From: a virus
Lineage: Duplodnaviria; Caudoviricetes
DNA length: 64,000 nucleotides
Reading direction: 5' to 3' (one strand)
Virus record (IMG/VR): IMGVR_UViG_3300021254_000021
Span: 64,001-128,000 of that record
Shown here: positions 2 through 45,293 of the stretch, piece by piece
Layout of the letters: each line of letters begins with the position of its first letter
Position numbering within the stretch: the stretch's first letter is position 1
Translations under genes and position numbers: made by a program
The notes under the pieces: generated by a model
The model's database searches: none
What the model saw: only the letters and a program-made list of their open reading frames with translations
What the model was told of the DNA's origin: nothing

Positions 2-1273
2 TTAAGGTATAATGAAAAGGTTTCTTTTTATTGTAAGGATCATGGTGTCTATACACAGATAGTAGCAGATCATATAGAGTATAAGACAGGGGAAAAGAAA
101 CAGGGATGCCCAAAGTGCGGAATAATAAAAAGAAATTTAAATAAGAAAGAGAGAAATAAACAGAAAAGACCAAACTATCCAGACTGGTTTATTGAGGATA
201 TAGCTAGTGAGGAAGATAAAGATAGGGCGAGAAACAAAGAACTAACGTGGTCTGATAAGGTAAATTTTATTTGTCCTATACATGGTGTGTATAAACAAAG
301 AATAGATGCACACATGAACACTTCTACTTTAACACCAAAACAAGGTTGCCCTTCTTGTGGAATCCTTCTTTCTAAAAGTGAGATAGAAATATCTGATTTT
401 ATTAAATCACTAGGGGTAGAGATAGAAAAAAGAAATAGATCTTTGATTAAAGAGAAAGCGTCTACGCGATTTTTAGAATTGGATATTTTTATTCCTAATA
501 AAAATATAGCTATTGAGTATAATGGAAGTTACTGGCATGGAGAGTTGCATAAAAAAGATAAGAAAAGTAATTTGAATAAATTCTTACTCTGTGCAGAACA
601 AGGTATTCGCTTAATCTCTATTTATGATCGTGATTGGAAAGAAAACAAAGATAAGATTTCTAACTTTCTAAAAGATTTGTTAGTTCCTAAAATTAGAATT
701 TTCGGTAGATGTACAGAAGTTAGAACCCTTTCCTTACAAGAAGCAAAGAAGTTTTATGATGAAAATCATTTAAAAGGGAGTGGTAATCACAATAAAATTT
801 CTTATGGTCTGTTTTATAATGGTAGTTTGGTATCAGCAATGTCCTTTTCTAAACCGAACTTTGGGAATCAAAGAAAGGTAGAGTGGGATTTGACACGTTA
901 TTGTGTTAAGTTTGGTTATTCTGTTATAGGAGGTGCTGAAAAACTCTTTAAAACATTTATAAAAGAATTTAATCCTTCTAATGTAATAACTTATTCTGAC
1001 AATGATTACTTTACAGGAGAAGTCTATTCCAGACTAGGTTTTCTTTTGGATAAGATAACTAGTATTCCTTATTACTGGGCTAAGAGTGATCACATTTTTC
1101 TAAATAGAGAGGTGTGTCAGGTACATAAACTAAAAGAAAAGTATCCTGATATTTTCCAGAAATCTATAGATGAGAATGCATCTAACAAAGAGGATTATAT
1201 CATGCACACTTTAGGTTATTATAAAGTGTATCGTTGTGGTAATAAAAGGTGGATTTGGAAATCCACTATCTAA
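2..1273 (+). CDS. Hef-like homing endonuclease (zinc-ribbon repeats + PD-(D/E)xK/Vsr-like nuclease + C-terminal domain), 5'-truncated by the window
   Basis: Frame is open from nt 2 (LRYNEKVSFYCKDHG...GCPKC...YPDWFIEDI...CPIHG), so the 287 start is not real. Nuclease motif ELDIFIP..IAIEYNGSYWH. Paralog of 3100..4923. Confidence 0.75.
   Translation, partial: LRYNEKVSFYCKDHGVYTQIVADHIEYKTGEKKQGCPKCGIIKRNLNKKERNKQKRPNYPDWFIEDIASEEDKDRARNKELTWSDKVNFICPIHGVYKQRIDAHMNTSTLTPKQGCPSCGILLSKSEIEISDFIKSLGVEIEKRNRSLIKEKASTRFLELDIFIPNKNIAIEYNGSYWHGELHKKDKKSNLNKFLLCAEQGIRLISIYDRDWKENKDKISNFLKDLLVPKIRIFGRCTEVRTLSLQEAKKFYDENHLKGSGNHNKISYGLFYNGSLVSAMSFSKPNFGNQRKVEWDLTRYCVKFGYSVIGGAEKLFKTFIKEFNPSNVITYSDNDYFTGEVYSRLGFLLDKITSIPYYWAKSDHIFLNREVCQVHKLKEKYPDIFQKSIDENASNKEDYIMHTLGYYKVYRCGNKRWIWKSTI
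1267..1272 (+). promoter_or_regulatory. TATCTA candidate late promoter
   Basis: Same hexamer recurs in intergenic positions at 1767, 2498, 4933, 7995, 30074, 30483, 31435, 37319 and 58632. Confidence 0.5.
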
Positions 1274-42901: not shown

Positions 42902-43076
42902 GCCTTAAAAAATAAAAGACTGTAAAGGTATTATGGTATAACCTTTTTAGGGGAGGTTAAATACTAGTATCATATTTATTAATATTTGTTAAATATTTTT
43001 AACTTTTTATACTTGATTTTTGTATAAAAAGTGAGTAAATTCTCTAATCAAGGAGGCGGCTTATGCCGATAGTCTT

Positions 43077-43670
43077 ATGTACTTACCTAGTCGTAAGGCT
43101 TGCCTTGAGTTGGGAGTCCATGCTAACACGCTGAGGAGATGGGCAGATGAAGGGAAAATTCGATACATCAGAACAGCAGGTGGTAAACGCCTCTATGACT
43201 GTTCCAGCGTCGAAGAAAATAGTAGCACGAAAAAGAACTACTGCTACTGTCGTGTCTCCTCGTCAAAGCAAAAAGACGACCTTGAAAGACAAGTCAGTTT
43301 TATGCAGTCAAGATACCCAGACTATACCATTCTCAAAGATGTTGGGTCTGGACTCAATTTCAAACGAAAGCAACTTATCTTCCTGCTTGAAGAATGTGCA
43401 ATGGGAAGAGTCGGAGAAGTTGTCGTTGCCTACAGAGACAGACTTTGTAGATTTGGATTTGAATTGCTTGAGTGGTTCTTCTCTAAAAACTCTGTTAAAC
43501 TCGTGGTTCTCGAACAACAAGAATTATCGCCTCAACAGGAGCTTGTTGCAGACTTGCTTTCCGTTATCACAGTGTTTTCATGTAGAGTTCACGGACTCAG
43601 AAAATACCGTACAGCGGTCAAGGAAGATAAGAGTTTATCCAAACAAGGAACAGAAGCAGATTTTGAATAA
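43077..43670 (+). CDS. tnpA: IS607 transposase (MerR-type HTH + serine recombinase)
   Basis: LGVHANTLRRW...GKRLY; YCRVSS..QKDDLERQ; DVGSGLNFKR; DRLCRFGFE. Confidence 0.95.
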   Translation: MYLPSRKACLELGVHANTLRRWADEGKIRYIRTAGGKRLYDCSSVEENSSTKKNYCYCRVSSSKQKDDLERQVSFMQSRYPDYTILKDVGSGLNFKRKQLIFLLEECAMGRVGEVVVAYRDRLCRFGFELLEWFFSKNSVKLVVLEQQELSPQQELVADLLSVITVFSCRVHGLRKYRTAVKEDKSLSKQGTEADFE

Positions 43671-44703
43671 TTGGTTTGGTGCTTCTAGGTTTGCTTATAA
43701 TAAAGCTGTAGCTTTTTTAAAGCAACCTAATACGAAAGCACAGTGGAAATCTATTAAGACTCCATTGTTGCATGAAATGCCTGAATGGTCAAAAGAAGTT
43801 CCTTATCAGATTAAATCTGTAGCAATTCGTGATTGTTGTCATGCTGTGTCTAATGCAAAAAAGAAATTCAAGCAGACTGGTAAATTTAACGAAGTCAGGT
43901 TTCGATCAAAGAAGCGCGGTGATAATAATTTATTTATCCCACAAAGTGCAGTTTCAAAGGATGGTGTTTATTACACTATCCTAGGTAAACTTAAGACGGC
44001 AGAACCTTTGTGGAAACCTAATCATGACTGCCGTATGTTTTTAGAGAATGGGCGTTATTTCGTCTCTATACCAAAAGATATTTTTGTAAAAAGACCTGAA
44101 AACCAAAGGCTTTCTGCATGTGCATTGGATTGTGGTGTTAGAACGTTCCAAACCGTTTTTTCTAAAGAACTTATTTTAAAAGTAGGCGAGCATGATTTCC
44201 AACGAATCTTTCGTTATTGCTATGCTTTAGACAAATTGGTTTCTCGAAAAAAGAAAGAGAAATCAAACAAGTTTAATAAAGCAATGCATAGAATCCGTTG
44301 GAGAGTCCATGATCTTATCGACGAAATCCATAATAAGCTAGCTTTAACGTTGTGTCGAATGTTTGATGTGATTTACATACCAATATTTGAGACACGGTAC
44401 ATGGTTTCAAAGTTGAAGCATAAGACATCCAGAGCAATGCTTGGGTGGGCACATTATCGCTTTAAAAAGAAACTTAAGTCTAAAGCAGAGGAGTATTCTT
44501 GTAAAGTTATTGATTGTACAGAAGAGTACACGTCAAAGACTTGTGGGAATTGTGGAGAGATAAGTTCGATTGGTGGAAAAGAAGTTTGGACGTGCAAACA
44601 CTGTGGTTGTGTACATGACAGAGATATAAACGGAGCAAGGAATATTCTGTTAAAGCAGTTATTTCTTGCGCTGAGAGATCCCTCCACACCTTGTTTGGTG
44701 TGA
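43147..44703 (+). CDS. tnpB: IS607 TnpB, rearranged-RuvC (pro-Fanzor-like) type
   Basis: KIRVYPNKEQ HTH; ALDCGVRTF; VIYIP (Pro at the canonical Glu position); EEYTSKTC; HDRDINGARNI. Start uncertain. Confidence 0.9.
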   Translation: MKGKFDTSEQQVVNASMTVPASKKIVARKRTTATVVSPRQSKKTTLKDKSVLCSQDTQTIPFSKMLGLDSISNESNLSSCLKNVQWEESEKLSLPTETDFVDLDLNCLSGSSLKTLLNSWFSNNKNYRLNRSLLQTCFPLSQCFHVEFTDSENTVQRSRKIRVYPNKEQKQILNNWFGASRFAYNKAVAFLKQPNTKAQWKSIKTPLLHEMPEWSKEVPYQIKSVAIRDCCHAVSNAKKKFKQTGKFNEVRFRSKKRGDNNLFIPQSAVSKDGVYYTILGKLKTAEPLWKPNHDCRMFLENGRYFVSIPKDIFVKRPENQRLSACALDCGVRTFQTVFSKELILKVGEHDFQRIFRYCYALDKLVSRKKKEKSNKFNKAMHRIRWRVHDLIDEIHNKLALTLCRMFDVIYIPIFETRYMVSKLKHKTSRAMLGWAHYRFKKKLKSKAEEYSCKVIDCTEEYTSKTCGNCGEISSIGGKEVWTCKHCGCVHDRDINGARNILLKQLFLALRDPSTPCLV

Positions 44704-44753
44704 TTTAATAGTAGCTATTAGTAATAATAGTGAATAAAAATGGATCGGCTTTT

Positions 44754-45293
44754 ATGGATAAAGAGAATGAGTTAAGTATACAGGATAAGAGACTTGTGAT
44801 GCGTATGGCTGATTTATGGCCTTTACAGGATAAACTGGTAAAGGAGATACCACAGATAAATGCCATCCCCGAGTTTTCCAAAGTAACCACCTTTATTACA
44901 CAAAGACCAATCTTACGGGAAGTAGCATTCTATTACCTGTACCATAATAAGGTTATAGATTATGTTAAGGTGTTTACGGCTGAGAATATTAAAGACATTT
45001 ATTTCCATGAGCATCCTGATTATAACTCCTTTTATGAAGTAGGTGTACCTATTGTGGTTATTCTGTTAGGTACGGAGATGTATAATCAGCAGATGATTAC
45101 GATCCTTAATTTGTTTTCAGACAACTTTCTGTCTAATGCAAATGCTAAAGCCTTAATCTTTTGCTTTGAAGGCAGTATGCAGGAATTTAAGAATAAATAT
45201 AAGAATGTCCAAGAAAGAGGCATTCTTAATACAGGTAAAACCTTTTCTTTAACCAAGACTTCTTTAAAGTCTAAGGACAAATTTGAAATGTAG
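44754..45293 (+). CDS. Hypothetical protein
   Basis: ATG 44754; original RBS displaced by the IS607 insertion. Confidence 0.6.
   Translation: MDKENELSIQDKRLVMRMADLWPLQDKLVKEIPQINAIPEFSKVTTFITQRPILREVAFYYLYHNKVIDYVKVFTAENIKDIYFHEHPDYNSFYEVGVPIVVILLGTEMYNQQMITILNLFSDNFLSNANAKALIFCFEGSMQEFKNKYKNVQERGILNTGKTFSLTKTSLKSKDKFEM

Follow-up and report, generated by a model that had tools for sequence, protein, structure and literature searches.

Our analysis indicates that the serine recombinase gene (tnpA) of a phage-borne IS607 element is overprinted by a selected reading frame of its partner nuclease gene, tnpB, such that approximately 520 nt would encode two proteins, i.e. the recombinase and, in the +1 frame, a predicted second product that forms the N-terminal extension of TnpB and includes a domain like the N-terminal domain (NTD) of Fanzor2. 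We put the probability of this reading, which is drawn from sequence comparison, at about 0.85. The IS607/TnpB element is itself of a known kind; the selected, domain-encoding dual-coding region is previously undescribed. The original prediction had held that the TnpB frame runs without a stop from ATG 43147 through an overlap of some 520 nt with tnpA, and that this overlap encodes an overprinted N-terminal region of TnpB. The coordinates on which it was built (AGGAGG 43051-56, ATG 43063, TGA 43132, GAGGAG 43133-38 and ATG 43147) all proved right against the sequence, and the frame is open as claimed (ORF 43147-44703, overlapping tnpA by 524 nt in the +1 frame). Stop depletion and suppressed third-position variation in tnpA, described below, support the further claim that the extension is a selected, overprinted N-terminal region encoded in the +1 frame of the recombinase gene.

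The IS607 element and its setting

The window, i.e. the whole stretch of 64,000 nt analysed here (positions 64,001 to 128,000 of IMG/VR record IMGVR_UViG_3300021254_000021), comes from a 252 kb virus record that is 94% complete, carries phage-type helicase, DnaB-like and tape-measure-like genes (PHROG matches), and has almost all of its genes on the same strand. An intact IS607-family transposon sits within this jumbo-phage genome, and the window thereby provides a prokaryotic-virus example in which tnpA and TnpB are both intact. Its limits (Table 1) were set by comparison with three further copies (L002, L006 and L008), which are 84-85% identical to the window element and whose flanks are unrelated between copies: homology ends exactly after ...ATGGATCGG at 44748, with a left limit at GG/TTAAAT, and the right end CGG/ and left junction GG/T (the slash marking the boundary) recur in all copies compared. 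The element is mobile, the four copies occupying differing contexts. In its organisation it is a member of IS607, having a serine recombinase TnpA (PF00239 Resolvase, 2.4e-16, residues 55-176) with a MerR-like HTH (PF00376, 1.5e-8, residues 8-40), a downstream TnpB in the same orientation and GG at the boundary; comparison of the element ends gave no significant inverted repeats joining them.

Immediately 5' of the left end, three independent insertions carry GAGG, AGGG and GAGG, flanks whose richness in G agrees with GG as the IS607 target and with the likewise G-rich Fanzor2 TAM. When the flanks in the window are joined without the element (42945-42956 and 44749-44756), they read ...GGGGAGG/cttttATG, with the ATG at 44754; insertion between SD and ATG should uncouple the downstream phage gene from its ribosome binding site, unless the right end of the element provides one. 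That gene has no PHROG match, and a search of viral contigs for an empty insertion site, made by way of the same gene, found no relative. The phage record holds a single copy of the element, blastn of the element against the INPHARED phages gave no match, and a scan of a viral contig collection with the TnpB core returned one close locus only; many homologue clusters lie on contigs of ~2 kb, with up to 297 members per cluster. The final ~190 nt of the element are nearly unchanged among the four copies, codon third positions included, and their consensus fold contains 56 pairs, 4 of them with compensatory changes. From these sequence properties the region is probably an omega-RNA scaffold; a search of Rfam with the right end of the element matched no family.

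Table 1. Features of the IS607 element and its surroundings, in window coordinates.
Feature	Position	Strand	Basis
G-rich left flank GGGGAGG; SD of the interrupted phage gene, likely TAM/GG target	42950..42956	+	Joined flanks, comparison of insertions
IS607-family element, ~1.79 kb, no terminal inverted repeats	42957..44748	+	Homology limits versus L002, L006, L008
Promoter-like site TTGTTA-16-TATACT within the left end (weak evidence)	42986..43013	+	Consensus scan alone, 9/12 matches
Strong SD AGGAGG, 6 nt before ATG 43063 (TnpB frame) and 20 nt before tnpA ATG 43077	43051..43056	+	Sequence
TnpB-frame ORF of 23 codons, closed by TGA 43132-34	43063..43134	+	ORF list
tnpA, serine recombinase transposase (MerR-type HTH and resolvase catalytic domain), 197 aa	43077..43670	+	Pfam
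SD-like GAGGAG, made of tnpA L-R-R-W codons, 8 nt before ATG 43147	43133..43138	+	Sequence
Long TnpB ORF, 518 aa, N-terminal extension plus canonical core	43147..44703	+	ORF list
Extension residues 1-83, basic Ser/Thr-rich disordered tail	43147..43395	+	AF2 pLDDT ~40, composition, identity
Extension residues 84-153, conserved domain with homology to the NTD of Fanzor2 (RuvC-R and thumb)	43396..43605	+	Structure and profile alignment
Canonical TnpB core (WED/REC/RuvC/Zn ribbon)	43606..44703	+	Pfam PF12323, PF01385, PF07282
Putative omega-RNA scaffold, from within the tnpB 3' end to the right end of the element	44560..44748	+	Near-invariance in 4 copies, consensus fold
Downstream phage gene, its SD parted from its ATG by the insertion	44754..45293	+	ORF list, joined flanks

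The canonical core of the long TnpB, whose Pfam HTH_OrfB_IS605 match begins only at residue 155, carries RuvC-I as ALDCG, RuvC-III as DRD and, within EEYTSKTC, a Glu that precedes the zinc finger by six residues; D328, E459 and D493 do not vary among 107 diverse sequences that were aligned. E459, which lies within EEYTSKTCGNCG, corresponds to the rearranged RuvC-II of the Fanzor2-related clade, a clade from which Fanzor2 itself is reported to descend, as an IS607 TnpB lineage with relocated Glu (PMC10711439). The RuvC-I motif of the window protein departs from the DPG of that clade, reading ALDCG against a consensus of ALDPG, with C or P in close relatives. Judged by its sequence, the window TnpB belongs to the prokaryotic clade nearest to eukaryotic and viral Fanzor2; it is not a Fanzor in the strict sense, for which the host would be a eukaryote or a eukaryotic virus and the protein would bear a nuclear localisation signal (NLS), the host record here being phage-like.

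Selection on the open +1 frame

Resampling of synonymous codons in the window tnpA, by an exact dynamic-programming calculation based on the codon usage of the element itself, gave 6.0 stops expected in the +1 frame and a probability of 6e-4 that none would occur. Taken alone such a value is not decisive, since a genome-wide scan can reach it by chance, and the open frame could on this figure have arisen by chance or from the composition of tnpA; we therefore turned to relatives selected independently of whether they carry the extension. When the TnpB core only was used as query, 116 of the best 120 homologues (75-95% identity) carried the extension (471-546 aa), the other four being 363-389 aa long. 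A metagenome scan with two patterns, both within the core, identified 80 loci, 50 of which have a near-complete tnpA (TnpA 36-92% identical), and in all 50 the TnpB core lies in the +1 frame, ~529 nt after the tnpA start. Across these 50 loci +1 stops are restricted to the first ~60-100 nt of tnpA, a limit that in one subgroup reaches nt 232, as against 3-25 stops per locus in the +2 frame, and the per-locus probability of a stop-free frame from synonymous resampling ranges from 1e-8 to 0.06.

When the 98 codons that lead up to the canonical start of TnpB were pooled over 43 non-redundant loci, the +1 frame had 0 stops versus 242 expected, and the +2 frame had 290. Five non-redundant loci in which the extension starts at ~nt 250 have 5-8 stops ahead of that point but none beyond it, indicating that the +1 frame of tnpA is not intrinsically stop-free. 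An origin of the open frame in chance or composition is effectively refuted by these data, and the expectation of the original prediction, that related IS607 elements would also keep this frame free of stops, was borne out.

Selection on the dual-coding region was further examined by comparison of three DNA sequences (window, L002 and L006), in which tnpA third positions are the second positions of the extension. Suppression of synonymous variation in tnpA, the other anticipated signature of dual coding, was found: tnpA third positions differ at 17-18% within the overlap versus 28-39% at non-overlapped tnpB third positions (Fisher tests: 2e-7, 2e-6 and 0.01). For the window versus L002 and L006, these differences amount to 22-24% across the disordered part of the extension, 14-15% across the conserved domain and 5-10% where tnpA overlaps the TnpB core. 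Identity among the three sequences is 90-94% for TnpA, 78-80% for the extension and 87-90% for the TnpB core, and the most variable codon position of the extension is position 2. That the extension evolves faster, and varies most at this position, identifies tnpA as the dominant constraint, a pattern that the more recent frame of an overprinted pair should show; the serine recombinase family and fold being ancient, it must be the TnpB extension that arose later, by overprinting. Where elements overlap in this way, the resemblance between their extensions is partly a by-product of TnpA conservation, and blastp matches of the extension between such elements were accordingly rejected as independent evidence, conserved tnpA DNA being sufficient to generate them. 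Taken together, the stop and substitution patterns indicate that dual coding is selected rather than fortuitous.

The N-terminal domain and its relation to Fanzor2

The original prediction treated the extension of ~150 aa as one N-terminal domain. This description stands for residues ~84-153, which form a conserved domain; residues 1-83 are instead a disordered, fast-evolving tail, as judged from the AF2 model and from identities. Among 95 close homologues, identity to the window protein is 70-73% over residues 1-80, 85% over residues 81-125 and 83-88% over the TnpB core. The first 80 residues contain 13 K/R versus 6 D/E and include KKIVARKR, and some N-termini among 150 cluster representatives (50% identity clusters) likewise begin with Lys/Arg-rich, NLS-like sequence. 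The domain is marked by W86, LSLPTETD (residues 92-99; 43420-43443) and NSWFS (residues 118-122; 43498-43512), the segment LSLPTETDF being the +1 reading of the recombinase motif VVVAYRDRLCRF. In many of the cluster representatives these motifs recur with fixed spacing, i.e. P[FY]WN, 13 residues, LWLPTxTD, 26 residues and [NK]SWF[ST], and W120 and F121 reach a conservation of at least 90% across the 107 aligned sequences, comparable to many positions of the core.

The AF2 model of the long TnpB (mean pLDDT 78.9, pTM 0.75) predicts disorder for residues 1-81 and a helix spanning 77-91, and it confidently models residues 111-127 as a short helix and a strand that pack against the core; confidence over the domain is moderate (pLDDT 54-81), falling below 50 at residues 98-107 and 133-145. 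Searched alone, the extension matched no Pfam family and, by phmmer up to E 10, no PDB sequence; its homology accordingly emerges only with profiles and structure. The best PDB sequence match of the whole protein is 9b0l_P, the mimivirus TnpB-like protein L79 (Fanzor2), in which the first WED strand begins only at ~residue 136. A profile built from the 107 sequences matches 9b0l with an E value of 7.7e-73 (profile 64-495 on chain 40-509), placing window N118-S119-W120-F121 on N82-S83-W84-Y85 and LWLPT on KWIPT, whereas the ISDra2 and ISFba1 TnpB proteins match the profile only from ~position 145. Structural alignment with VIA-align superposes model residues 84..511 on 9b0l_P 59..518 with Z 26.7, residues 84-153 aligning with 9b0l residues 59-130; all other TnpB and Cas12f chains, ISDra2 and ISFba1 included, align only from model residue ~153.

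A likeness of the extension to the N-termini of viral Fanzor2 proteins, which the original prediction had suggested, is thus verified by profile, by structure and by hhalign (below), and is localised to residues 84-153. In the published Fanzor2 structure (9b0l) the N-terminal domain comprises RuvC-R (residues 65-91), whose N82 and S83 touch the pseudoknot of the omega-RNA, and a basic thumb (residues 109-130) on the target DNA; residues 1-53 constitute an NLS that is not seen in the structure, and the domain was described as unique, being absent from other TnpB structures (PMC11832414). The modelled window TnpB has a corresponding structured domain (RuvC-R and thumb) ahead of its first WED strand, as is characteristic of the Fanzor2-related clade. 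The basic tail at 43147-43395 occupies the site at which Fanzor2 bears its NLS, and may represent raw material for one.

Distribution and loss of tnpA

The same layout is present in named cyanobacteria, Poribacteria, Latescibacteria, Dehalococcoidia, Desulfobacterales and others, and in many of the 150 cluster representatives the core starts at ~residue 150. In five loci from cyanobacteria and Caldilineaceae (L100, L106, L107, L110 and L111) tnpA has decayed to a partial TnpA match, and 156-184 open codons with SWFS are kept; in these loci the nuclease frame has outlasted the transposase. Three loci that lack tnpA (L093, L125 and L131) retain an extension of 94-108 codons, SWFS included. L086, a giant-virus contig of 1.26 Mb, encodes a Fanzor2 within 4 kb of which no tnpA lies; this protein reads ...NTNSWFD... 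ahead of RKIRIYP and aligns by hhalign from the window NSWFS onward with probability 100, indicating that the domain is kept as a protein domain without a constraint from tnpA on the DNA. Distant actinobacterial TnpBs have 0-4 open codons ahead of the core. Two of the four short homologues (363-389 aa) begin with an ATG exactly at the canonical N-terminus, from which it follows that forms without the NTD exist. Two Dehalococcoidia MAGs (L121:1518-3269 and L133:1524-3263) contain TnpA and the TnpB core in one ORF of 580-584 codons that lacks the N-terminal domain, which could be a real fusion protein or the result of an indel error in long-read assembly.

These observations bear on the proposal that the frame is kept open merely so that ribosomes starting upstream can reach the core, i.e. 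that translational coupling is the sole reason for it and that the sequence of the extension is functionless. Such a proposal accords with the disorder, poor conservation and variable length and start point of residues 1-83, and with the lack of a start codon adjoining the core in the window. Nevertheless, we consider it improbable. W120, F121 and the spaced motifs are as conserved as catalytic residues; copies with a dead or missing tnpA still have the domain, as does a giant-virus Fanzor2 with no tnpA close by; and in both sequence and structure the domain aligns with the RNA- and DNA-contacting domain of 9b0l. Overprinting of tnpA by a selected frame that encodes a protein domain remains the preferred reading.

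Predicted translation of the overlapping frames

Translation of the long TnpB would most likely start at ATG 43147, by way of GAGGAG; in many relatives an ATG at tnpA nt +64 to +76 is preceded by AAGGAG- or AAGGAA-like sequence. There is no other tnpA-frame start between AGGAGG and ATG 43077. In L009-L021 and L028 the SD lies 6-8 nt before the tnpA ATG; the window lineage has ~14 extra nt between the two (43051-43079, compared with L009-L021), and since these bear a TnpB-frame ATG, the strongest SD serves the nuclease frame rather than the transposase. The arrangement of SD and ATG 43063 is present in L002 and L006 and not in more distant relatives.

The short ORF that begins at ATG 43063 had been put forward as an in-frame leader. 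The 23-codon ORF and its TGA are indeed present, but it is not a dedicated leader: this TGA is replaced by a sense codon in 52 of the 126 homologues listed, in which ATG 43063 then opens an ORF of 546 codons, and the 23-codon ORF is consequently better regarded as a truncated N-terminus than as a conserved leader. Length classes among the 126 listed comprise 546 aa (52), 518 aa as in the window (43) and 527 aa (7), and their coexistence indicates that the first 28 residues are dispensable. Recoding of TGA was rejected, given that TnpB and its homologues themselves end at a TGA (44701). Ribosomes that load at the SD 43051-56 and begin at ATG 43063 would read through the 23 codons, terminate at TGA 43132 and perhaps reinitiate 12 nt downstream at ATG 43147, and ATG 43063 would compete with the poorly spaced tnpA ATG 43077; termination-reinitiation coupling at 43132/43147 combined with such competition is a plausible arrangement, and coupling of this kind may, as the original prediction proposed, set the TnpA:TnpB ratio.

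It has also to be considered that the extension is untranslated in the window copy, its open frame inherited and idle, with TnpB starting at TTG 43543 or 43546 or at a non-canonical codon near 43600. Both TTG codons are preceded by AGGAG at 43537-41, and the gene calls for homologues P0121 and P0122 begin at about the TTG point, those for P0123 and P0124 at the canonical N-terminus. We regard this as unlikely, however, in view of a spacing between SD and TTG of only 1 or 4 nt, the loss that it would entail of the conserved NSWF and LSLPTETD motifs, both intact in the window copy, and the frame kept open in 116 of 120 close relatives together with reduced tnpA third-position variation. An initiation of TnpB near 43600, which the original prediction had itself named as evidence that would count against it, is not provided for in the window copy, in which the TnpB frame contains no ATG, GTG or TTG between TTG 43543/43546 and the first WED strand.

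Production of TnpB as a TnpA-TnpB fusion, by programmed +1 frameshifting within tnpA, would be compatible with a core that always lies in the +1 frame of tnpA, and with the in-frame fusion of TnpA to the TnpB core encoded in Dehalococcoidia L121 and L133. We nevertheless think it very unlikely: no slippery or +1 shift site was identified within tnpA, in-frame ATGs with SD-like sequences occur at conserved places (+70 or ~+250) directly after the last stop, the frame is open far upstream of any shift site that would be needed, and the domain persists without tnpA. Independent initiation at ATG 43147 remains the favoured route to the long protein.

Proposed role, origin and implications

By homology with mimivirus Fanzor2, residues 84-153 of the long TnpB would form a small domain packed on the RuvC/WED core that completes the RuvC fold and clasps the target DNA next to the TAM, with the N-S of NSWF contacting the guide-RNA pseudoknot. 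Residues 1-83 would be a basic disordered tail, the length and start point of which differ between relatives. For the wider history, we consider it likely that the Fanzor2 NTD (RuvC-R and thumb), possibly together with the basic tail that became its NLS, was born de novo by overprinting of a prokaryotic IS607 tnpA, was kept as a dual-coding region of ~500 nt across bacterial phyla, phages and giant viruses, and later survived alone after loss of tnpA; the phage copy would then be a living example of the ancestral state.

If this history is correct, it would document the origin of a domain of an RNA-guided nuclease by de novo birth in an alternative frame of the partner transposase gene, and the Fanzor2 N-terminal domain would already exist in prokaryotic and phage IS607 TnpBs. 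Annotation pipelines, and surveys of TnpB and Fanzor that trim proteins to the canonical start, would on this analysis lose a domain that contacts guide RNA and DNA, and the engineering of compact nucleases from the Fanzor2-related clade should employ the long form. Ordinary codon models would be unsuitable for tnpA of this clade. Interleaving of transposase and nuclease would, in addition, link the two functions genetically, mutations in one gene also striking the other.

Comparison with known systems

In the literature on IS607 overprinting or dual coding and on RuvC-R, we found no account that ties the Fanzor2 NTD to the tnpA overlap or tests it for selection, and a 2023 TnpB classification and a 2026 review likewise do not connect the NTD with that overlap. 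IS607 ORFs are noted to "often overlap" (PMC6188088, PMC3673617, PMC9956272). The nearest characterised protein, matching best by both sequence and structure, is the Acanthamoeba polyphaga mimivirus Fanzor2 (ApmFz2, L79; 9b0l; PMC11832414), which resembles the window TnpB in having an N-terminal domain with an NSW[FY] motif before the WED strand, a Glu six residues before the zinc finger, and an IS607 linkage with G-rich flank or TAM. The two differ in that ApmFz2 comes from a eukaryotic virus and bears an NLS in residues 1-53, whereas the window TnpB is phage-borne; RuvC-I is DPG in the former and DCG in the latter, and overall they are only ~21-22% identical.

Cyanobacterial IS607 elements, e.g. 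ISArma1, are the presumed bacterial source clade of Fanzor2, and for these the literature states that the ORFs "overlap", the extent of the overlap, any selection on it and the encoded product not being described (PMC10711439, PMC3627910, PMC3673617). They share element type and TnpB clade with the window element, are 38-47% identical to it in the core and, in named genomes, have a TnpB frame with xSWFS that opens ~58 nt after the start of tnpA. In IS607 of Helicobacter pylori and in further IS607/IS605 elements, TnpB likewise follows a serine recombinase TnpA in the same direction and the ORFs often overlap, the overlaps being described as partial, with no extent or function given (PMC6188088, PMC9956272).

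With elements of the IS3/IS1 type the window element has in common two overlapping transposon frames and a ratio that would be set at the level of translation. The orfA-orfB pair of IS3 and IS1 has a short overlap, across which programmed -1 frameshifting yields a fusion protein. In the window, by contrast, ~520 nt are predicted to be read independently in two frames, giving two unrelated polypeptides.
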